A DNA stretch of 32,000 nt from Methanothermobacter marburgensis str. Marburg (GTDB taxonomy: Archaea; Methanobacteriota; Methanobacteria; Methanobacteriales; Methanothermobacteraceae): NCBI RefSeq assembly GCF_000145295.1, contig NC_014408.1, positions 390,001 to 422,000 of the forward strand. Direction: 5' to 3'. The stretch's first letter is position 1, and each line of letters starts with the position of its first letter. The notes beneath the pieces are model-generated. The model ran no database searches. It worked only from the letters and a program-made list of their open reading frames with translations, and was not told the DNA's origin. Both the position numbers and the translations under genes were made by a program. Below are positions 5,467 through 32,000 of this stretch, in pieces.

Positions 5467-5556
5467 TTCAAATCCTCCTTTAAACCACTACAACTGTAAA
5501 TTACTCAATAAAATATTTAAAATCTGATGAATATAAAGACATAAGGAGGCTGTTTG

Positions 5557-6405
5557 ATGTACAAAGAGAGGCTCACTGACGTATACGAATATCTCTATGA
5601 GGATCTTCAGTTCATCCTCAAATCCAGCATAAGGTTCAGGATAATGGTTTCGCTTCTCAGGTCACCGAAAACCTTTGATGAGATTAAAGGGGAAGTTAAG
5701 GTGAGCCTTCCAGCACTTTACAGTAACATAAAATTACTTCTTGAGGAGGGGGCCATCACCAGGAGGGGGAACTCTTACAGCCTTACATCAGAGGCAACCC
5801 TCAAGACCCTCTCAGCACTGAAATTGATGAACTCTGTGAGGGTTATGAATGGATTTGATGAAATGTGGCTGAATCATGATATCAGCGGGATTCCTGAATA
5901 CCTCATTGAGGATATTGACTGGCTCATAAATTCTGAACTCATCAGGTCAGCACCTGAGGATATATACAGGCCCCAAAACACCTACAGAAGACTTATATTG
6001 GATTCTGAGGAGGTTTATGGCGTATCCCCCATCTCTCACAGGGACCTGGTTGATATCTATGAGGGGTTCCTGGAAAGGGGGGTTCCTGTTGAACTTGTCC
6101 TCACAGATGGCGTGATACGGGAGATGGTTTTAAATGCAAGTTTCGGGCTCCTCAGGACTGCAATTAAGAACAGAAACCTTAAGGTTCTCCGATTTCAGGG
6201 CTCATTGAAGATTGCGTTCACGGTGACCGATAAGTTCCTCTCACTGGGTCTTTTTGATAGCAGAGGATTTTATGACCAGAACAGGGATATCATGAGTACT
6301 GACAGTAGAGCCATTGAGTGGGGCTTCCGGCTCTATGAACATTACAGGGAGAGATCTGAAAAGCTTGGCATCAGAAACCTGACTGGAATAATGTTATCAA
6401 TGTAG
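5557..6405 (+). CDS. Winged-helix transcriptional regulator with DUF1724/FilR1-type C-terminal domain, 282 aa
   Basis: ArsR-like wHTH near the N-terminus (SPKTFDEIKGEVKVSLPALYSNIKLLLEEGAITRRGNSYSLT) followed by a ~190-aa C-terminal domain. GGAGG (5546-5550) lies 6 nt before ATG 5557; TTG 5554 is less likely. Confidence 0.7.
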   Translation: MYKERLTDVYEYLYEDLQFILKSSIRFRIMVSLLRSPKTFDEIKGEVKVSLPALYSNIKLLLEEGAITRRGNSYSLTSEATLKTLSALKLMNSVRVMNGFDEMWLNHDISGIPEYLIEDIDWLINSELIRSAPEDIYRPQNTYRRLILDSEEVYGVSPISHRDLVDIYEGFLERGVPVELVLTDGVIREMVLNASFGLLRTAIKNRNLKVLRFQGSLKIAFTVTDKFLSLGLFDSRGFYDQNRDIMSTDSRAIEWGFRLYEHYRERSEKLGIRNLTGIMLSM

Positions 6406-6415
6406 GGGGCAGAGG

Positions 6416-7303
6416 ATGGAACTTAACAGTGATTTTAACCTACTTTCAGGGTTTTCGGATGACATTCATGATTTGCTTGCTGAGATCAGATTTATAGCAG
6501 GATCCCGGGTGCGATCAGGTGTAATACTCAATCTTATGGACGGAGAAAAAAGGGTTTCTGAGATCAGGGACATCATAAGGACCTCAAATTCAGCCACCAC
6601 ACATGCACTCATGGAGCTGGAGGAAAGGAGGCTGGTGGAGAGGTCCTCAGATACATGCAGACTAACTTCAAAGGGAAAGCTTATGGGAATCACCCTATCA
6701 AAATTTATGAACTCAATGGATGCTGTGAGGCTTCACAGGGAATTCTGGAACAAACATTCAATTGGATCAATTCCAGCGCGGTTCCTCATGGACATAAACG
6801 TCTTTAGGGACGCCTACATTGTTGAGGCAACACCAGATGACCTCCAGAGACCATACACAACCTACCTTGAGATGCTGGATAACGCCACCCGCCTCAGGGC
6901 AATGCTTTCATCCTGCCTTCCCAGGCACACAGAATCAATAGCAGGGTTCGTTGAAACTGGCGGAAGGGTGGAGCTCATACTGACACCTAACACATATCAT
7001 GTTTTTCTTGGGGAGTCTGGCTTAATGAACCTCCATGAACTCATGGATTCAGATTTACTGAGAATTGGTGTTCTCCCTGAGAATCAGGAGATCTCGTACC
7101 TGATATCTGACACTTTTTTCTCAATGAGCCTCTTTAAAAGGGATGGCTTTGATTCATCAAAAACGGAAATCCTGTTGGGTCATGGGGATGAGATTCTCCA
7201 GTGGGGGAACAGTCTGTTTGATTACCACTGGAGCCTCTCATCGGTACTGGACAGTGAATCTCTGGGCAGCGTCAGGGAGACCCCGCTTCCTCTGGAGGAG
7301 TAG
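6416..7303 (+). CDS. Winged-helix transcriptional regulator, paralog of the upstream gene (DUF1724/FilR1-type), 295 aa
   Basis: Same architecture as 5557..6405: wHTH (GEKRVSEIRDIIRTSNSATTHALMELEERRLVERSSDTCRLTSKG) plus a C-terminal domain with matching landmarks (FW..H.I..IP, VELILT). It starts 10 nt after the upstream stop. Confidence 0.7.
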   Translation: MELNSDFNLLSGFSDDIHDLLAEIRFIAGSRVRSGVILNLMDGEKRVSEIRDIIRTSNSATTHALMELEERRLVERSSDTCRLTSKGKLMGITLSKFMNSMDAVRLHREFWNKHSIGSIPARFLMDINVFRDAYIVEATPDDLQRPYTTYLEMLDNATRLRAMLSSCLPRHTESIAGFVETGGRVELILTPNTYHVFLGESGLMNLHELMDSDLLRIGVLPENQEISYLISDTFFSMSLFKRDGFDSSKTEILLGHGDEILQWGNSLFDYHWSLSSVLDSESLGSVRETPLPLEE

Positions 7304-23268: not shown

Positions 23269-23418
23269 CCAGTATCTTAATAATGAACTGTGGATGTAAC
23301 ATGCTATTTATTGTGGGTGCAATTTATAAGTCTTTTGGTTTTTCTGTAAGCGAAAGTGAGTATATCCACGTTTCTGACAAGGAGAGAAAAGTAATAAAAA
23401 TTTATGGCGGTTTGGTCT

Positions 23419-23502
23419 GGGTAGGGTTTGATATTGGATTGGAGGCGGTTTCAATTCCAATTTAAAAGACCAGAATAAGTTTAAAAGTCCTGGACCCTAC
23501 CC
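23419..23502. other. Nested inverted-repeat element 1 in the long moaB / nob1 gap (candidate structured RNA or protein-binding site)
   Basis: Outer 9-bp perfect stem GGGTAGGGT (23419-23427) / ACCCTACCC (23494-23502). Inner hairpin ATTGGATTG (23433-23441) / CAA-t-TCCAAT (23452-23461) with a 10-nt loop. Confidence 0.3.
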
Positions 23503-23642
23503 GTTTACTATATATTAACACCACTATTTATAAAGTTTTCGTTAGATTGGTTCAACCGTTCTCAAGGACTTTTAAGCGCATTTAAGGGTTTTTAAACCAT
23601 CTAAACATGAAAATAACTGTTTTAATTTACTTTACAGAACTT

Positions 23643-23769
23643 CATGGTAATACTTTTTTACACCTGCCCGATTATCCACATGGTCTGTTGATGGGGTGTA
23701 TCTGAGGTTCTTCCACAGGGAAAGCCCAAACCCGGTACTTCCCCATGTGAGGGTAAATTTATTACCATG
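23643..23769. other. Nested inverted-repeat element 2 in the long moaB / nob1 gap (candidate ~127-nt structured RNA)
   Basis: Outer 10-bp perfect stem CATGGTAATA (23643-23652) / TATTACCATG (23760-23769). Inner 7-bp stem CACATGG (23677-23683) / CCATGTG (23743-23749). The enclosed segment is more GC-rich than the rest of the gap. Confidence 0.3.
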
Positions 23770-23793
23770 CTTCACCAAACCTCAAAATGGAAA

Positions 23794-23808
23794 CTTATTA
23801 TATTATAA
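23794..23808 (+). promoter_or_regulatory. TATA-box-like element upstream of the nob1-like gene (candidate promoter of the whole 23.8-32 kb unit)
   Basis: cttattatattataa is centred ~30 nt upstream of ATG 23832 with no SD in between, which implies a leaderless or near-leaderless transcript. Confidence 0.4.
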
Positions 23809-23831
23809 TCCCTGATTAATACGTGGTCTTA

Positions 23832-24329
23832 ATGAAGAGGGTTCTTGATGCATCTGCATTCATAAACGGATACATACCTGAGGGCACTGAAAACTACACC
23901 GTGAAGTCTGTAACAGATGAGATAAGGGACTTCAAATCGGTCATGGTCCTTGAGAGGGCACTCAGTGATGGCAGACTCAGAATAATGGAACCTGACCCTG
24001 AGAGCATGAGGGAGGTGGATGAGGTCACCAGCAGATCAGGGGATGCCATGAGACTCTCCAGTACAGACAGGGAGGTTATAGGGCTTGCCGTTTCACTCAG
24101 AAAGAGGGGCGAGGTAACTGTAATCACCGATGACTATACGATACAGAACACCCTCAGAATTCTTGGAATAGAGTTCAGCAGTGTCCTCACATCGGGTATA
24201 AAGGAGACCTATCAGTGGAGGAAGATATGCACTGGATGCAGGAGGGTGTACCCTCAGGACTACCAGTTCGGGGAATGTGAGATATGTGGCTCAGAGATAA
24301 AGAAGAAAAGATACAGGTCCCGCCGTTAG
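23832..24329 (+). CDS. nob1: PIN-domain endonuclease with C-terminal zinc ribbon (archaeal Nob1-like), 165 aa
   Basis: N-terminal VLDASAFI (PIN acidic residue), ITDDYTIQN, and a C-terminal CTGC..(17)..CEIC ribbon plus basic tail. This is the architecture of archaeal Nob1. ATG 23832 lies ~25-30 nt downstream of a TATA-like box with no SD, which suggests a leaderless mRNA. GTG 23823 is the track start. Confidence 0.7.
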
Positions 24330-24360
24330 AGGGGATCTTGCAGGAAGCTCGGGTGATCTT

Positions 24361-25482
24361 ATGAGAATAGGCGTGGTTGTCCACGGACCACAGATAGTTG
24401 ACTCAGGATACGCAGCAAAACTTATAGATTTTCTAAAAAAATATGGGGAGGTCAGGGCAAGACTGGGGGGCACCATGGGGCGGACCGCGGTCTATGACGC
24501 CCACCTTGAGGATGTTATAGACATCTCAGAGAAGAGACTCCCAAGTGAATCGGTTGACCTCTTTGCAGATGAGGGCGCCGGCATTGTTGTCCTCATGAAT
24601 TACGGAAAGTCCCGTATCACAGGGCATGGATTTGGATACAAGGTTTTCCAGAGATCAGAAAAAAAACCGCCAGTTGTTCAGATAGAAAGACCAGGTGAAC
24701 CCGATGGAAGTGTTGTGGCATGGAAGAGGGAGGCCGAGTCATTCGCAGAGAAACTGGCACGTGAACTTGAACTCGAGATGGTGGATCCAGAGGAGGTATG
24801 CAGGGAGATCTTCCATGGAGAGCCATGCGGTGAACAGAAGCCTGACAGAAGGGAGTACCGGAGGCTCGTGGGTGTCTCAGAGAATGAGAACATATTCGTA
24901 AATGGTATAGTAGTGGGGGTCTCAACGTCAGACGACGTCACCCTCGTCGCAGAGGACGGCGTGATCACTGAGATAATAGGTGGGAAGATAAAGGAACACG
25001 GGGTTGAAAAGCTTGGAAGGGTTAACCTCAAGGACGCGGTAGTGAAGACGGGACTTCTCCGCCGCTCCGAGGTAAAACCCAGAAAGGTGAAGGTAAGGGA
25101 AAATAATAAAAAGAAGTACCGGGTTTCGTTCTTAAACCACGCAGCAGAGGACATATACATGCTCCATGACTCTGATCTTGTTGTCACGGTTGGAGATGAT
25201 ACAACGCTCGTGGCTGCAGATATACTCTACAGATTCGATGTTCCCATAATAGGGATAACAGACGGTGATATAGATAGGGTGGTTAAGAAGGGCTTCAAAT
25301 GCGCAGATTCGATCATAATAGAGTTTGAGGAGGGATGGGACGATATAGTTGGTGAAAGAATCCACAGGGAGCTCTTCAGGGGTAAAAAAACCATTGAAAC
25401 CAATGATTTGGAAACTTTTAAAAGGGATCTACTACAGATTATAGATAATATAGGTGCAAGCTACACCGTGAGATACACCTAA
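24361..25482 (+). CDS. Conserved methanogen protein of unknown function (possibly DUF2117 family), 373 aa
   Basis: Clean ORF with GGGTGATC SD directly before ATG 24361. The N-terminus is [18 protein letters not shown] and the C-terminal part has [20 protein letters not shown] (acidic DxD-like motif). The family name is uncertain. Confidence 0.6.
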
Positions 25483-25504
25483 ACCGATAAAAAGAGGTGT
25501 GGAA

Positions 25505-26491
25505 TTGGATTTAGATGATATCATCCATTCCCTTAAAAATTTTGAGGGTGTAACAAGAAAACGGCCAATAAGAAATATAGTTTCTATTCTTAATGATGCA
25601 TTCAGTGTCTCGGGAAAAACACATCTCGGTTACGGTGATGATGCATCGGCCATCAGGATTGGCGACGGAAAACTTCTTTTACTGGCAGCAGATGGAATAT
25701 GGGGGCGTCTGATGGAGGCTGACCCCCACTGGGCCGGTTACTGTTCTGTACTTGTTAATGTTAACGATATTGCAGCCATGGGCGGTAAACCCGTGGGCAT
25801 GGTCAACGTTCTCTCAATTAAATCACGGGAGACCTGTTACAGTGTGATGGAGGGTATAAGAGAGGGGGCAGAGAAGTTCGGGGTCCCAATGGTGGGGGGC
25901 CACGTGCACCCTGACACACCCTACGATGCACTGGATGTTTCAATTGCAGGTATAGCATCGGAGGATGCTCTCATAACAAGCTGTGACGCAGAACCCGGTG
26001 ACAGGGTTATAGTGGGCATAGACCTCGATGGAAGGCCACACCCATCATTTCCCCTTAACTGGGACACAACCACCCATAAAACACCTGAAGAGGTGCAGTT
26101 CCAGATTGAGGTAATGTCCATCATCGCAGAAAGAAAGCTGGTAACTGCAGGTAAGGATATAAGCAACCCGGGGACCCTTGGAACACTGGGGATGCTGCTT
26201 GAGGCATCGGATGTGGGCGCACGGGTGGAACTGGAATCAATACCACGTAACAGATCAGTTAAGTGGGAGGACTGGCTTCGAATGTACCCTGGCTCAGGTT
26301 TTGTGCTGACAGCACGCCCAGAAAATGTTGCTGAATGTATTGAACTGCTCGAGTCTGCCGGAATAACCGCATCAGACGCCGGGGAGATAGTATCCGAAAG
26401 AAAACTCCACTTAGTCCATGATAATGATGAAAGGGTCCTCTTTGACTTTGAAAGGGACATCATAACAGGTGTGATAGAAGAAAAAATATGA
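25505..26491 (+). CDS. mmp2: Methanogenesis marker protein 2 (AIR-synthase/PurM-like ATP-utilising fold), 328 aa
   Basis: PurM/ThiL/HypE-type N-domain motif GYGDDASAI and DIAAMGGKP, plus a C-terminal PurM-like domain. GAGG (25494-25497) lies 7 nt before TTG 25505; GTG 25499 (track start) overlaps the SD. Confidence 0.75.
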
Positions 26492-26501
26492 GGGAGATCT
26501 G

Positions 26502-28043
26502 ATGTTTGTTAAGGTTAATGGACTGGATGTTGAACTCCCGGAGGGGGCCACAGTGAGGGATGCCATCGATGCTACAGGAGCCCCCTATGTGAAAGGCGCC
26601 CTTGTGGGCCTCATAAGCGGCACAAGGGAACTTGAAAGGACAATAGACACATACCGGATCAAAACAACAGCAGGAAGCATCCTGATTGAACTGCTCCCTG
26701 AGGAAGCACCTGAAATCGTTGAGACATGGAGGGAGGTCTACAGCAACCTTGAAAACCTCCGTATAAGGTGGACAACCCCATCCGAGATTTCAATGGGACC
26801 CCTGAAAACAGAACTGGAGCCGTCAAGGAAGGAATTCTTCTACGACGAGAATGAGGTTATAATGAGCCTCTCAGGGTTCAGCCCGGATTCAACCCACATA
26901 ATAATCTCCAGGGACCCCCATTCATCAGTATACGGCGCCCCGGCTGAGAACAGGGGTGTTTTTGCAAGGGTAACCGGCGGGGGAAGAACCATTGAGCGGC
27001 TGACAGACCGCGACGTGATAAGGTCAGTGGAACCAGTTGTTGAGAGAAAAAGCATAGTTGAGAGCGCCGCAGTGACAGACCTTGAAACACCACTTGAGGA
27101 TGGAAACCAGATATTCACCTACGTTAAGGTAAAACCATCCCACGAGTCCCCCCAGTCTGTTGAACACTTCTTCACAATGGTGGAGGAGGGGAAACTGAGG
27201 GTCGACTATGAGGCCAACTCATTCATAGGTTTCTACTCCCTTCAGGGGATAAAAAAGGATCCTGAAAAAATAGCAAAGAGAAACAGGGGCACAGTGACCC
27301 TTAGGAACACAGGAAGGGGTGCTGGAAGGGTTTACATATACAGGGAGGACAGGGTTTCAACACCATCCCACAACCTCATAGGAAACGTTACAGATGGAAT
27401 GGAACTGGTGGATATAGCAGGGGAAGGGGACCACATCACGGTGGAGTGCGAACCCGGCAGGATAATGACAGTATCCATGACCCAGAAGGAAGCAGAGGAA
27501 TACCTTAAAGGATACGGTGTCGAGCAGATACGGGACGGCATAATGGTTGACGATGCAATCGTTGTGGCCCAGGACCCACCCTACACCATGGACATACTCA
27601 AGGAGGGAAGGGTCAGAACAGTGGGCATAGAGGCCGATAAAATCCTGGAGGTTGAACTTGACCCTGATGCGCCAAGATCCTCATGGTACTTCCGCAGACT
27701 CACAGGCCTCATCGACACACCCATCGGATCCCTCAAGGTACACTTCGCCTTCCCAGGAATGAAGGTGGTGATGTTTGAGGGTGACAGATCCCTGGCAAAG
27801 GGCCTTGTACCGGAGAAAACACCTGAAAACTGCGTTAAAAAGGGCAGCATTGGCATAACAAACATGTCAAGGAGACACATAGGTATGGTTGGTGTCAGAC
27901 TCGAGGACAACGATGAATACGGCCCAACAGGGGAACCATTCAACGGTACCAACATAATAGGCAGAATCATAGAGGGCCTTGAGAATGTTGAAAAATTCAA
28001 AGAGGGGGACACAGTCTATGTCCGGGAAAGAAAAAAACCATGA
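26502..28043 (+). CDS. mmp3: Methanogenesis marker protein 3, 513 aa
   Basis: Size, position after mmp2, and the N-terminal [22 protein letters not shown] opening match my memory of the Mmp3 (UPF0288) family. ATG 26502 is preceded by GAGGGAG. Confidence 0.7.
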
Positions 28044-28464
28044 GGAATCAACAAGAATGATAATACTTGGGCCGTCATCAAGGCTGAGCTCATCAGAACT
28101 TGTCCAGAGGCTCCACCTCCTTGGACTGCCACTGACCATAAAATCAACATGTTACGGTGCGCTGGTGCATGGGGACACAGAGACTGTGATGGAGGCTGTC
28201 AGAAAAATACGCAGCCTGGACCCGACCAACATATTCACAAAGGAGAGGGGGTTCCCACCTGGGGACCCCAGGAGATGCAGAGGACACAGAGGAGCAGCAA
28301 GGGAGGGTTACCATCAGCTTGAAAAGGAATTCAAACTACTTGGATATGTGGGCGAGGCCCTTGAAAGGCCCCAGAAGGCCGAACCCGAAAAAAAGGAGAA
28401 GGTTTCTGTTGATGAATTTCGCGATGTAGTTGAGAGGAGTCTGAAATCCAGACAGAAAACATAG
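28018..28464 (+). CDS. mmp6: Methanogenesis marker protein 6, 148 aa (135 aa if ATG 28057)
   Basis: The core [40 protein letters not shown]...IRSLDP..IF.KERG....[10 protein letters not shown] fits the Mmp6 pattern as I recall it. The start is ambiguous: ATG 28018 (26-nt overlap with mmp3) or ATG 28057. Confidence 0.65.
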
Positions 28465-28475
28465 GGCTGATTGAA

Positions 28476-28847
28476 ATGAAAATAACTTCATCATCCACTG
28501 GAGAGGAACTCAAGGAACTTGGAATGTGTATACATGAACTTGTAAGTCGTCTTCCCCTCACAATAAGGAGCCGGGAAGCAAAGGGTCTTCGAATAGAGGA
28601 CGGCAAGGTGATCGATGACAGCTACACAGGACCCGTACTTGAAAAGGTCCTTGAATCAGGTGAGATAGCAAGGGAGACACCTGAGAGGGGACCCTACAAG
28701 GGGATACCCGTGGTCGTGGTACCCCTGAAGGAGAAGGGTGAGGTTCTCTGTGCGGTGGGAATCGTTGATGCCACAAAGGGCCTCTTCACAGACATGGTTG
28801 AAATAGCCAGAAGACCCCAGGAGGGAGACAGGGGGGAATTCTATTGA
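28476..28847 (+). CDS. Small conserved protein of unknown function embedded in the mmp cluster (possibly DUF2111), 123 aa
   Basis: ORF starts 11 nt after the mmp6 stop, and its stop TGA 28845-28847 overlaps the mmp5 TTG start. I recognise no motif; the sequence ends ..[29 protein letters not shown]... Confidence 0.55.
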
Positions 28848-29290
28848 AGATAGCGATATTTCCACCAAATTCACTTATACTTGCAGATCTTGTTGAAAGA
28901 AGGGGACATGAGCCCCTTGTAATCCAGAAAGAAATCAGACAGAAGGTCACAGACCCTGAAATTGATTCACCACCCTTCAACATAACCGAGGAGGACCCGA
29001 TAAGGGGCCTGAAGTATGCGGCAATAGAGGTTCCCTCAGGTGTGAGGGGGAGAATGGCAATCCTTGGGCCCCTCATAGAGGATGCGGATGCCGCCATAAT
29101 AATGGAGGAAGCCCCCTTTGGTTTTGGATGCATAGGATGCGCAAGGACCAATGAACTCTGCGTATTCCAGCTCAGAAAGAAGGGCATACCCACACTTGAA
29201 CTGAAATATCCCACAACAAGGGAAGAGACAATAGATGTGGTTAACAGGATAAACAAATTCCTGGACGAACTGGAGGCTCAAAATGGTTAA
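28844..29290 (+). CDS. mmp5: Methanogenesis marker protein 5, 148 aa
   Basis: The opening [25 protein letters not shown] and the Cys motif [14 protein letters not shown] match my memory of Mmp5. TTG 28844 overlaps the upstream stop (TTGA). Confidence 0.65.
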
Positions 29291-30521
29291 AATAGCCCAG
29301 ATTTCATGCGGAACCGACTACAGCGGTGTTCAGAAGGAAATTGAAAAGGCAGCGAGGACTTTCGGGGCCGAAATAGTGATCCCCGAGGCCGACCTTGACT
29401 ACATAGACGAGGCCTATGAAAAATTTGGGTTCAACTGTGCCAGTTCAAGCCTGAAACTCATGATAGCAAGGGCAATGTCAATCGTTGAGGGCAAAACAGA
29501 TGCCGACGCGGTTTTCATAGCAACCTGCTTCAGGTGTGCAGAGGGAGCCCTTGTAAGGAATGAGATAAGGAGGTTCATACAGCAGAACACAAGGCTTCCG
29601 GTTGTAACCTACTCATTCACAGAGAGAACAAAGGCCGATGAGCTCTTCATACGTATGGAGGCGCTCTCAACAATAGTGGCAAGGAAGAGCATACTTGCAA
29701 GGGAGAAACAGGAGGGCCTCACCCTTGGAATAGATTCAGGTTCAACAACCACCAAGGTAGTGCTGATGGAGGATAACGAGGTCATAGGAACAGGATGGCT
29801 TCCCACAACAGATGTCCTTGGCTCCGCAGAGAAGGGTATAGAGGAGGCCCTCGCAGGTACAGGTTACACGATTAAGGACCTTGATGGGATAGGAGTCACA
29901 GGTTACGGCAGGTTAACCATAGGGAAACATTACGGGGCCGACCTCATACAGGAGGAGCTCAGCGTGAACTCCAAGGGTGCAGTGTTTCTGGCAGACCACC
30001 AGAAGGGGGAGGCAACGGTCCTGGATATAGGGGGTATGGACAACAAGGTCATAACCGTCAACGATGGAATACCCGACAACTTCACCATGGGGGGTATCTG
30101 CGCCGGTGCATCATGGCGTTTCCTGGACATAACAGCCAGGAGGCTTGGAGTGGAGATAGATGAACTTGGAAGCCTGGCAATGAAGGCCGATTACGAGAAG
30201 GCGATGCTCAACAGTTACTGCATAGTCTTTGGTATACACGACCTTGTAACCGCACTTGCAGCGGGAGTTTCAAGGGAGGATGCAGCAGCCGCGGCATGCC
30301 ACTCGGTGGCCGAACAGGTATATGAGCAGCAGCTCCAGGAGATAGATGTGAGGGAACCCCTCATACAGGTGGGTGGAACATCCCTTATAGAGGGCCTTGT
30401 TAAGGCGGTAAGTGATATTCTGGGAGGTATCGATGTCATCGTACCCCCGTATTCACAGCACATAGGCGCAGTTGGAGCGGCCCTCCTTGTTTCTGGAATG
30501 AAAGACATCAGTGAGGGTTAA
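29283..30521 (+). CDS. mmp15: Methanogenesis marker protein 15 (BadF/BadG/BcrA/BcrD-HgdC-type ATPase domain with N-terminal Cys-containing domain), 412 aa
   Basis: Acetate/sugar-kinase-fold phosphate-1 motif [14 protein letters not shown], later [10 protein letters not shown] and VGGTS, and an N-terminal domain with [14 protein letters not shown] (29272-29276) lies 6 nt before ATG 29283, which overlaps the mmp5 end by 8 nt. Confidence 0.75.
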
Positions 30522-30522
30522 A

Positions 30523-31014
30523 ATGGGGATAAATGTTGAGTGCTACGACCCCCGGGGTGCAGAGGTCTATGAGATAATAGCCCGCCAGGTTCTTCAGGAT
30601 CTCCAGCTTGCAAGGGCAGTTGATGACCTGAGAATATGGGTTGATCCTCGAGAGCCGGTCTTCATCATAGCGGTTAAGACACAGAGGACCTCTGAGCCGA
30701 TTTACCTTGAGGACATGGTGGAGATGGAGGTTGATAAGGCCACCGGAGCAGTCCACCTGAGGATAAGGGATGAGACGTACCTTCCACAGCTACTTGAAAG
30801 GCTCTGGGAGACACAGGGGCGTGGCGGGGTACGGCAGCCATCCCGATTTGAGGTGGTGGTGGAGGACCCCATCTCGGATATCAGCGGAATGACGGTCCGC
30901 GACCCCTCAATGAACCTCGAGAAGAGGGTGTACGATGCAATATTCCGTATAATACCCGAGGGATTCCGGGTTATAAGGGACCTTTCAGAGGATAACATAA
31001 TAGCCCTTGGATGA
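30523..31014 (+). CDS. mmp17: Methanogenesis marker protein 17, 163 aa as read (about 185 aa if a +1 frame continuation to 31081 is real)
   Basis: Position after mmp15 and size class. GAGGG (30513-30517) lies 5 nt before ATG 30523; GTG 30511 is the track start. See the finding on the C-terminal frame break at 31009-31014. Confidence 0.6.
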   Translation: MGINVECYDPRGAEVYEIIARQVLQDLQLARAVDDLRIWVDPREPVFIIAVKTQRTSEPIYLEDMVEMEVDKATGAVHLRIRDETYLPQLLERLWETQGRGGVRQPSRFEVVVEDPISDISGMTVRDPSMNLEKRVYDAIFRIIPEGFRVIRDLSEDNIIALG

Positions 31015-31085
31015 TACCGATGAGGTGCTCATGGATGAATGGATTTTAAAGGTCAGGGAGATAATAGACGATATGAGGTGAAAAC

Positions 31086-31952
31086 ATGCCCGATCAGAGA
31101 CAGACACGCTTTGCCCACATAACAAAGGGTCAGCCCTGCTTCAATGAGAAACTGCATGACAGGGTTGGAAGGATCCATCTGCCCATCGCACCCCGCTGCA
31201 ATATCCACTGCAAGTTCTGCACAAGGGATATCAGTGAATGCGAAAACCGGCCAGGGGTCACTGCAAGGATCATGACAGCTGAGGATGCAGTAAAGCACGT
31301 TGAGAAGGTTAAGAGCGAGATGCCCATAAGTGTAATAGGGGTCGCAGGACCCGGCGATGCCCTTGCAAATGAGGAGACCTTCGAGTTCTTCAAAAAGGCC
31401 AGCAAGAAGTTCCCGGATCTCCTTAAATGCCTCAGCACCAACGGTCTGCTCCTTCCAGATAAGGCTGATGAACTGGCAGAGATTGGTGTTAACACAGTCA
31501 CAGTAACCGTGAACGCCATTGACCCTGACATAGGTGAGAAGATATACTCCTTTGTTATCTACAAGGATAAGGTCTACCATGGAAGGGAGGCCTTCGAGGT
31601 TCTCTCAAGGAACCAGCTTGAGGGTATAGAGAAACTTGCAGAGAAGGGTATCATTGTTAAGGTCAACAGTGTACTCATACCTGGCCTCAACGATGAACAC
31701 ATAGTCGACATTGCAAGGGAGGTTAAAAAGAGGGGAGCCTCCCTCATGAACGTTATACCACTCATACCGATGGGTGAGATGGAGGACTACCCACGGCCAA
31801 CCTGTGAGGAGATCGAGAGGGTCAGGAATGAGGTTGAAAAGATAATACCCGTATTCAGGGCATGCACACAGTGCAGGGCAGACGCCTACGGCATCCCAGG
31901 GAAAAAGGGTGCCGACAAGCACCTTGACATGACACCAGCGAGCCACTACTGA
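31086..31952 (+). CDS. nifB: NifB-type radical SAM enzyme (stand-alone radical SAM domain form), 288 aa
   Basis: N-terminal QPCFNEKLHDRVGRIHLPIAPRCNIHCKFCTR (the HPCY-like motif plus the CxxxCxxC radical SAM cluster site), TVTVNA, and C-terminal ACTQCRADAYG. Together these are the NifB signature. GAGGTGA (31075-31081) lies 4 nt before ATG 31086. Confidence 0.85.
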   Translation: MPDQRQTRFAHITKGQPCFNEKLHDRVGRIHLPIAPRCNIHCKFCTRDISECENRPGVTARIMTAEDAVKHVEKVKSEMPISVIGVAGPGDALANEETFEFFKKASKKFPDLLKCLSTNGLLLPDKADELAEIGVNTVTVTVNAIDPDIGEKIYSFVIYKDKVYHGREAFEVLSRNQLEGIEKLAEKGIIVKVNSVLIPGLNDEHIVDIAREVKKRGASLMNVIPLIPMGEMEDYPRPTCEEIERVRNEVEKIIPVFRACTQCRADAYGIPGKKGADKHLDMTPASHY

Positions 31953-31967
31953 AAATCCCGTGATAAC

Positions 31968-32000
31968 CATGAAGACACTGGAATGGAAGGACAACCGACT
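31968..32000 (+). CDS. 5' end (11 codons) of a probable aIF-2B/MtnA-family (ribose-phosphate isomerase-like) gene, truncated by the window
   Basis: ATG 31968 lies 15 nt after the nifB stop with GTGAT upstream. MKTLEWKDNR(L) resembles the M..L.W.D..L opening of the eIF-2B alpha/beta/delta-like isomerase family. Only 33 nt are visible. Confidence 0.35.

Follow-up and report, generated by a model that had tools for sequence, protein, structure and literature searches.

At the downstream end of a 32,000-nt stretch of Methanothermobacter DNA (the window, by which the whole stretch is meant), eleven genes run on one strand from position 23832 to the window end at 32000. With good confidence, they form the Methanothermobacter (Methanobacteriales) version of the published gene cluster that serves to activate methyl-coenzyme M reductase (MCR), and the locus is already known and not new. 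An earlier reading of the window made from the letters, called here the sequence-only reading, gave the same gene order and strand and took the cluster for an open lead; on this last point it had been overtaken by the literature (Nature 2025; 2026 preprint). The core of the cluster would be Mmp3-Mmp6-DUF2111-Mmp5-Mmp15-Mmp17 followed by nifB, with Nob1 and the pair DUF2117-Mmp2 added on the 5' side and an MtnA-type isomerase added on the 3' side. What is new here is above all the assignment of DUF2111 as a PAS-like domain, together with its fusion to a winged helix-turn-helix (wHTH) domain in genes that lie divergent to an A2-McrC-Mmp run.

MCR is the source of nearly all biological methane, and how a potential of ~-650 mV is reached for its nickel cofactor is only partly understood. 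Beside NifB, the cluster holds the remaining uncharacterised candidates, which are Mmp2, Mmp5, Mmp6, Mmp15, DUF2111, and DUF2117. The field already knows and studies this locus, and finding it here raises no new question; the additions are a possible sensor or regulator role for DUF2111, a separation of the core from lineage-specific passenger genes, and a warning on the sequence of positions 30114-31829.

Layout of the cluster and its published counterparts

The cluster comprises the following features:

23794..23809, + strand: TATA-like A/T box CTTATTATATTATAAT, 23-38 nt 5' of ATG 23832; candidate promoter of the unit
23832..24329, + strand: archaeal Nob1-like endonuclease (PF17146, NF009145)
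24361..25482, + strand: DUF2117 protein, 373 aa (PF09890)
25499..26491, + strand: Mmp2 (TIGR03267)
26502..28043, + strand: Mmp3 (TIGR03268)
28018..28464, + strand: Mmp6 (DUF2102; TIGR03272), alternative start 28057
28476..28847, + strand: DUF2111 protein, 123 aa (PF09884)
28844..29290, + strand: Mmp5 (DUF2112; TIGR03271)
29283..30521, + strand: Mmp15 (TIGR03286, TIGR00241)
30523..31014, + strand: Mmp17 (DUF2113; TIGR03291), 163 aa in the window copy
31010..31081, + strand: frame-shifted remainder of Mmp17, DDTDEVLMDEWILKVREIIDDMR and stop, ending 4 nt before nifB
31086..31952, + strand: NifB, short form, 288 aa (TIGR01290)
31969..32000, + strand: first 10-11 codons (MKTLEWKDNR) of the MtnA-type isomerase (IF-2B family)

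The gene identities proposed by the sequence-only reading are backed by Pfam and NCBIfam matches above the curated cut-offs for PIN_6/NF009145, DUF2117, Mmp2 (TIGR03267), Mmp3 (TIGR03268), Mmp6 (TIGR03272), DUF2111, Mmp5 (TIGR03271), Mmp15 (TIGR03286), and Mmp17 (TIGR03291), with NifB as the sole exception. The distance from the PIN (Nob1) gene to DUF2117, when recomputed, is 31 nt. DUF2117 is followed by Mmp2 after 16 nt (GTG 25499) or 22 nt (TTG 25505, the start picked by gene callers in relatives), and Mmp2 by Mmp3 after 10 nt. The junction of Mmp3 and Mmp6 is -26 (ATG 28018) or 13 nt (ATG 28057), and the next ones measure 11 nt (Mmp6 to DUF2111), -4 (DUF2111 to Mmp5), -8 (Mmp5 to Mmp15), 1 nt (Mmp15 to Mmp17, ATG 30523), and 71 nt (Mmp17 to NifB). 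All junctions listed earlier were reproduced but for that between NifB and the last gene, which is 16 nt (ATG 31969) and not 15.

The MCR activation complex of M. maripaludis has been solved, and consists of McrC, Mmp7, Mmp17, Mmp3, and A2 and contains three [8Fe-9S-C]-like clusters (PMC12176620). It sits on MCR, and the three clusters provide an electron wire to F430 for the conversion of Ni(II) to Ni(I); their ligands are located in McrC and Mmp7, the activation genes are dispersed in that genome, and NifB was proposed as the maker of the clusters (PMC12176620). Homologues of two proteins of the window, Mmp3 and Mmp17, are subunits of this complex (PDB 8S7V, 8S7X, 9H1L), as the sequence-only reading had stated. 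For Mmp3, a structural subunit in 9H1L (PMC12176620), the assignment was made by NCBIfam only (TIGR03268, 746 bits). The window Mmp17 matches TIGR03291 with 221 bits over positions 2-162 of 185; from L001, a relative at 99% identity, the full-length Mmp17 matches 8S7V chain G/9H1L with E = 6e-21.

In M. marburgensis, the genes MTBMA_c04360-c04410 are described as "followed by nifB" (Discussion, Ramirez-Amador et al., Nature 2025, PMC12176620). The preceding gene, MTBMA_c04350/MTH1864, was named a 'SelD homolog' by Kaster 2011; given that this gene is Mmp2, MTBMA_c04360-c04410 correspond to Mmp3, Mmp6, DUF2111, Mmp5, Mmp15, and Mmp17. This locus and its M. thermautotrophicus counterpart MTH1865-MTH1871 are orthologous to that of the window and come from the same genus, with six genes and then nifB. 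The Nature 2025 account leaves out Nob1, DUF2117, and Mmp2 upstream and MtnA downstream, and gives the DUF2111 gene no special mention. Relative to the published M. marburgensis locus, Mmp17 is frameshifted in the window copy, which also shows unusual substitutions.

A 2026 preprint (bioRxiv 10.64898/2026.03.18.712670) describes an 'MCR activation operon' of M. acetivorans, made up of Mmp5, Mmp6, Mmp17, Mmp7, Mmp3, Mmp15, and A2. Co-transcription of these genes was observed by reverse transcription PCR, their expression is ~40-fold lower than that of mcr, and none of them could be deleted; the same preprint refers to nifB as an essential gene and puts Mmp15 forward as a candidate for a transient ATPase. 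The window has five Mmp genes in common with this operon, lacks A2 and Mmp7 as well as McrC, and adds DUF2111, Mmp2, DUF2117, nifB, Nob1, and MtnA. Indeed, no match to McrC, Mmp7, or A2 was found among the other open reading frames (ORFs) of at least 150 aa in the window, which fits the published Methanothermobacter arrangement, where these genes are located elsewhere in the genome.

NifB, Mmp15, and the DUF2111 protein

By its family and its ligands, NifB is the radical S-adenosylmethionine (SAM) synthase of the [8Fe-9S-C] L-cluster. The protein reaches 308.7 bits with TIGR01290 versus a cut-off of 343.65 (profile positions 9-282 of 441), and stays below the cut-off because it is a short form without the NifX-like domain. 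It is near-identical to the solved NifB of M. thermautotrophicus (7BI7/7JMA/7JMB; 622 bits), and its radical-SAM motif CxxxCxxC (C38/C42/C45) and the K1/K2 cluster ligands C18, C115, C260, and C263 are invariant. NifB may thus make the [8Fe-9S-C] clusters of the activation complex, as already proposed in the literature; its identity as a cluster-maturation enzyme, which backs this part of the sequence-only reading, agrees with the family, with the solved structures, and with the same proposal in PMC12176620. With the line that assembles the nitrogenase cofactor (NifB to NifX/NifEN) the cluster shares a NifB of the proven L-cluster synthase type, with a structure from the same genus. It differs from that line in the absence of NifX, NifEN, and NifH from the neighbourhood and in its proposed clients, McrC and Mmp7.

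Mmp15 matches TIGR03286 with 757 bits and TIGR00241 with 352 bits, and is composed of an N-terminal domain of 145 residues with three cysteines (C9, C82, C85) and an activase ATPase of the HgdC/HadI/BcrAD type (146-402). The ATPase has the ASKHA fold (PF01869, 255 bits over 148-402), its phosphate motifs, including VGGTS, align to HadI, and its PDB matches are the activases HadI/HgdC/MbdQ (4EHT, HadI-type, E = 6e-32; 1HUX, 9GAI, 7YYL). C273 and C313 align to the two [4Fe-4S]-bridging cysteines of HadI, of which the first is C125 and the second, as we take it, C164. All five cysteines of Mmp15 (C9, C82, C85, C273, C313) are invariant in 34/34 homologues. The HgdC/BcrA-type signature and the motif ATCFRCAEG, both read from the sequence before, are therefore present, the former by TIGR00241, the PDB matches, and the two retained bridging cysteines, and the latter through C82 and C85. 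In Pfam, the N-terminal domain gave sub-threshold matches to CGGC and UPF0004.

Two small proteins of the core carry conserved putative ligands as well. Mmp5 (TIGR03271, 252 bits), translationally coupled to Mmp15 by the overlap of 8 nt, has H22 and C96-x2-C99 invariant in 33/33 homologues; the cysteine motif reported for it is thus present in its CxxC part, but the third cysteine, C106, is kept in 14/33 only. For Mmp6 (TIGR03272, 169 bits), C45 and C87 are shared by 33/33 homologues, and 32/33 have H33. Activases of the HgdC/HadI/BcrAD family perform ATP-driven injection of low-potential electrons, and not cofactor assembly. Given this family membership and the conserved ligands, the most economical model for Mmp15, Mmp5, and Mmp6 would be an ATP-driven injector of low-potential electrons for the L-cluster wire. 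Mmp15 would act as an HgdC-type 'activase', in which ATP hydrolysis lifts an electron from the bridging [4Fe-4S] cluster to a very low potential; its N-terminal three-cysteine domain and the coupled Mmp5 (one His and the CxxC), perhaps with Mmp6 (two cysteines), would form the receiving or relay site, from which electrons would be fed to the L-cluster wire of the activation complex. Residues 146-402 align end to end with the activases of 2-hydroxyacyl-CoA dehydratases and benzoyl-CoA reductases. Mmp15 differs from these in its extra N-terminal domain and in its partner, which would presumably be Mmp5 and the MCR activation complex and not a protein of the HgdAB or BcrBC type.

The DUF2111 protein (PF09884) has 123 aa and no Cys, and stands alone in the window. 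Its AlphaFold2 (AF2) model has a pLDDT of 87, and among PDB structures Foldseek places only sensor domains of the PAS, GAF, or Cache type at the top, with a probability of ~1.0 and a TM of ~0.5 but an E value of only ~3e-3. An exhaustive profile search returned only 143 representative clusters, and weak matches to multi-PAS histidine kinases (E 1e-9 to 1e-4). Among the representatives, DUF2111 is fused to a winged-helix domain and DUF4443, in both domain orders, and to a receiver domain; its conserved polar residues are H20, R31, R39, D47, and those of a YTGPVLE motif. By its fold, its profile matches, and its fusions, DUF2111 is a PAS-like domain of the sensor type, with putative ligand sensing. 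A NifX-like carrier of the L-cluster, also considered for this protein, was ruled out by the confident PAS/GAF-like model and the lack of conserved Cys.

The gene neighbourhoods of DUF2111 were compared in 80 species-level loci sampled around its homologues, with 10 kb taken on either side and all window proteins mapped onto them. The gene is flanked by Mmp6 and Mmp5 in both Methanobacteriales and Methanofastidiosa. In 7/7 loci (species) of Methanomassiliicoccales, DUF2111 is instead the C-terminal domain of a wHTH-DUF4443-DUF2111 protein of ~320 aa (L054:9353-10324; also L044, L057, L060, L071, L076, and L083). The gene for this fusion is divergent to the A2-McrC-Mmp run at a distance of 136-205 nt in four loci of Methanomethylophilaceae and lies 0.5-2.6 kb from A2 in two loci of Methanomassiliicoccus; in L060, no A2 or Mmp genes were found in the sampled DNA around it. 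The PAS-like fold and these regulator fusions near A2-McrC-Mmp indicate a role in sensing or regulation and not that of a maturation enzyme, and DUF2111 may act as a PAS-like ligand-sensing or regulatory subunit. We know of no regulator of MCR activation. Tentatively, DUF2111 could be the ligand-sensing module of MCR activation and the Methanomassiliicoccales fusion a dedicated transcription regulator of the A2-McrC-Mmp operon, although we consider this possible and not probable; the signal sensed might be a readout of the state of MCR, such as the heterodisulfide, a coenzyme, or F430.

Other neighbours of DUF2111 were recorded in the same sample. In Methanoculleus (L085:6001-7409), the stop codon of a lone DUF2111 gene directly adjoins the start codon of a gene for a BirA-like biotin ligase/repressor, after which come BioY and ECF ATPases; an ECF S-component is found beside DUF2111 in Methanosuratincola, and DUF166/Mtd in Methanosarcina.

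Gene order across species and competing readings

The complete order Nob1-DUF2117-Mmp2-Mmp3-Mmp6-DUF2111-Mmp5-Mmp15-Mmp17-NifB-MtnA occurs in ~25 species of Methanobacteriales, and in that order only. Since it is kept at 45-85% amino-acid identity, the arrangement is not due to chance. Across these species the junction Mmp5-Mmp15 is -8 in 24/25, the medians are -4 for DUF2111-Mmp5, -26 for Mmp3-Mmp6, and 13.5 for DUF2117-Mmp2, and in most of them the start of Mmp6 overlaps the stop of Mmp3. Other junctions are looser and often exceed 100 nt (medians of 114 for Mmp2-Mmp3, 74 for Mmp17-NifB, and 68 for NifB-MtnA), and the gap between Nob1 and DUF2117 has a median of 120 nt and ranges from 28 to 3013 nt. 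Given that only some junctions are tight across the order, the packing into a single unit is a trait of the compact genome of Methanothermobacter.

The core Mmp3-Mmp6-Mmp5-Mmp15-Mmp17 stays together in Methanomassiliicoccales and Methanofastidiosa as well. It forms part of one run, A2-McrC-Mmp3-Mmp6-Mmp5-Mmp15-Mmp17-Mmp7, in Methanomethylophilaceae, and the order is Mmp6-DUF2111-Mmp5-Mmp15-Mmp17-Mmp7-Mmp3 in Methanofastidiosa. An unclassified metagenome-assembled genome of Methanobacteriota (L030, 639-4723, minus strand) carries Mmp5-Mmp15-Mmp17, a radical-SAM gene that resembles nifB and scores 207 bits with TIGR01290, and a weakly Mmp7-like ORF (34% tblastn identity, no NCBIfam match), and is thus a second lineage with nifB embedded among activation genes. 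Linkage of Mmp5, Mmp6, and Mmp15 to Mmp3/Mmp17 was found in Methanobacteriales, Methanomassiliicoccales, Methanofastidiosa, and this genome, and by the 2026 preprint also exists in Methanosarcina; Mmp5 and Mmp15 are adjacent in every lineage seen. In the sampled 10 kb on either side of DUF2111, neither Nob1 nor DUF2117, Mmp2, or MtnA accompanied the core Mmp genes in any locus outside Methanobacteriales.

The outer genes were assigned as follows. The PIN gene encodes, as had been suggested, an archaeal Nob1, a homologue of the rRNA-processing (D-site) nuclease: it matches NF009145 with 289 bits (cut-off 223), has a PIN_6 domain and a zinc ribbon whose four cysteines (C133, C136, C149, C152) are invariant in 23/23 homologues, and its PDB matches are P. 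horikoshii Nob1 (2LCQ, E = 1e-27) and the human and yeast NOB1. By its AIRS (PF00586) and AIRS_C (PF02769) domains, Mmp2 (TIGR03267, 539 bits, cut-off 365) is an ATP-using enzyme of the PurM/ThiL/SelD superfamily; its PDB matches are ThiL, PurL, PurM, and SelD, and it is closest to the sll0787 family and ThiL, in agreement with the PurM/HypE-like signature noticed before. The last gene, first called aIF-2B-like, is not a translation factor but an MtnA-type S-methyl-5-thioribose-1-phosphate isomerase, given that its full-length orthologue in L001 (13125-14054) reaches 371 bits with TIGR00512 (cut-off 279); it follows nifB in 21 loci of Methanobacteriales. Nob1 and MtnA are probably housekeeping neighbours or passengers. 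A more speculative role for MtnA would be to recycle 5'-deoxyadenosine and methylthioadenosine, by-products of the radical-SAM chemistry of NifB.

DUF2117 (PF09890, E = 2e-132) lies directly 5' of Mmp2 in 24 loci of Methanobacteriales and has no conserved Cys. Its AF2 model (pLDDT 81) shows three alpha/beta domains with a C-terminal NAD-kinase-like motif, GDDTT...PIIGITDG, and the match to the NAD_kinase N-domain is weak (24 bits, cut-off 25.5). A function could not be drawn from the fold, since Foldseek against the PDB gave only generic Rossmann-type matches (TMq <=0.22) and the NAD-kinase motif is sub-threshold. In CP043480.1 (L001:5487-6662), no gene is called at the DUF2117 site, where tblastn finds 97% identity with a shortfall of 169 nt; a frameshift or an annotation gap is possible in that record.

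A number of observations weigh against the interpretation of the cluster given above. In the proteins, a clear paralogy of Mmp5 with the N-terminal domain of Mmp15 was not obtained (hhalign probability of 24%, E = 8e-4 around the CxxC), and the window copies of Mmp15, Mmp17, and NifB are altered at invariant positions. NifB may, as we presume, additionally serve nitrogenase in Methanothermobacter. In other Methanobacteriales, internal promoters would have room in the gaps Mmp2-Mmp3, Mmp17-nifB, and PIN-DUF2117, which are frequently longer than 100 nt, and T-runs are not significantly depleted inside the cluster versus other coding sequence (1 found where 3.3 were expected, P = 0.16), for which reason this depletion was rejected as an argument against internal terminators. 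Beyond the three orders named above, DUF2111 has no consistent neighbourhood and occurs in unrelated contexts. Mmp2, Mmp5, Mmp6, Mmp15, and DUF2111 are absent from the purified M. maripaludis complex (PMC12176620), so that their participation is deduced from linkage and essentiality only.

This absence from the purified working complex is also what would be expected if Mmp2, Mmp5, Mmp6, Mmp15, and the two unnamed proteins (DUF2117 and DUF2111) were an ATP-driven maturation line that inserts the L-cluster of NifB into McrC/Mmp7 or matures another cofactor of MCR. The sequence-only reading had seen in the cluster both the activation complex and such a line; the subunits of the complex and the enzyme of cluster synthesis are there, but the remaining genes do not bear out the line. 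In its favour, nifB is adjacent, and in L030 the NifB-like gene lies between Mmp17 and the weak Mmp7-like match; the short NifB lacks a NifX-like carrier domain, so that a carrier of some kind is required; Mmp5, Mmp6, and the N-terminal domain of Mmp15 have only two or three invariant Cys each, as for transient or shared cluster sites; and the PurM superfamily of Mmp2 includes the maturation enzyme HypE. Nonetheless, the ATPase of Mmp15 is a full HgdC/HadI-type activase, of a family that does electron transfer and not cluster trafficking, the 123-aa DUF2111 protein is Cys-free and PAS-like and not NifX-like, DUF2117 is without conserved Cys, and in the sampled loci Mmp2 and DUF2117 are linked to the core in Methanobacteriales only. 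A maturation line is for these reasons a doubtful, if conceivable, alternative, and electron injection with sensing would seem to fit the family evidence better.

A narrower account, to which we give a little less than an even chance, is that only the block from Mmp3 to Mmp17 and nifB are functionally linked, and that Nob1, DUF2117-Mmp2, and MtnA were fixed in place by genome compaction and read-through transcription. The proposal that all eleven genes are one functional unit is not supported, given that Nob1 is a homologue of the rRNA D-site endonuclease, MtnA is a salvage isomerase, and the four outer genes are linked to the core, within the 10 kb sampled around DUF2111, in Methanobacteriales only. 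The narrower account is also in line with the gap between PIN and DUF2117, which has a median of 120 nt and reaches 3 kb, with the sampled loci outside Methanobacteriales, none of which has PIN, DUF2117, Mmp2, or MtnA near the Mmp core, and with the Methanosarcina operon, from which Nob1, DUF2117, Mmp2, and MtnA are missing (bioRxiv 10.64898/2026.03.18.712670). Against it stand the order kept in ~25 species at an identity of 45-60% for PIN and DUF2117, the nature of Mmp2 as a methanogen-specific marker, the median of 13.5 nt at the DUF2117-Mmp2 junction, and the plausible link of MtnA to by-products of the radical-SAM enzyme NifB.

The 30114-31829 patch and transcription signals

The window is 98.9% identical to CP043480.1 (L001) and 99.78% to the Logan contig L090. 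Its 18 differences from L090 (17 substitutions and 1 insertion) all fall within 30114-31829, with none in the preceding 6.3 kb, and many of the substitutions are G/C swaps. The insertion, an extra A at 31014, cuts Mmp17 down to 163 aa in combination with T>G at 31010. In relatives Mmp17 has 185 aa and ends 4 nt before nifB; in the window, 23 codons of the remainder can be read in the +1 frame and end at the same distance. The remainder found in relatives can be aligned with the C-terminal end of the M. maripaludis Mmp17 chain in 8S7V, and the extension of mmp17 that the sequence-only reading had left as a possibility is real in relatives, where it is the true C-terminus. Mmp15 has four changes in the same patch (G278W, E282D, G302A, and Q319H), each at a residue that 34/34 homologues from several orders share, and NifB has H16Q, where the His is invariant in 26/26 and the solved M. 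thermautotrophicus NifB has Ala-His.

The frameshift at 31014 and these substitutions at positions invariant across orders could mean that the window copy is decaying and non-functional, with a truncated Mmp17 and damaged Mmp15 and NifB, and that a second system (the Mrt isoenzyme or a paralogue) perhaps compensates. This is very unlikely. The 18 differences from a 99.8% identical contig are confined to 1.7 kb and many are G/C swaps, a pattern typical of a local problem of sequence quality; an exact product corresponding to the 163-aa Mmp17 is on record nowhere; and in M. acetivorans, deletion of the homologous genes did not succeed (bioRxiv 10.64898/2026.03.18.712670). From their clustering and the G/C swaps, the differences are read as sequence errors, and the anomalous 1.7-kb patch 30114-31829 is probably a local problem of sequence quality in the source record, not biology.

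With regard to transcription, the A/T box at 23794..23809 is the sole strong A/T box directly 5' of the first gene. Purine tracts resembling Shine-Dalgarno sequences precede nearly all starts of the cluster, and no oligo-T tract is present at any of its junctions, both as stated in the sequence-only reading; genes that terminate units elsewhere in the window do carry such tracts. The tight junctions free of oligo-T are consistent with joint transcription of the cluster, and the genes of the cluster, in the compact Methanothermobacter genome, are probably transcribed together from a predicted promoter near 23794. A scan for sigma-70 promoters and intrinsic terminators gave the shuffled expectation, with models that are not meaningful for archaea, and no Rfam families or tRNAs were detected in the window.

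Upstream of the cluster, positions 23269-23822 are a non-coding, AT-rich stretch of ~550 nt (39% GC) between a divergent gene with a MoCF_biosynth domain and the Nob1 gene, and hold several A/T boxes and T-runs. Further upstream, at 5554-7303 of the window and unrelated to the cluster, two adjacent genes with a FilR1_middle domain ('methanogenesis regulatory protein FilR1') encode putative regulators in tandem.

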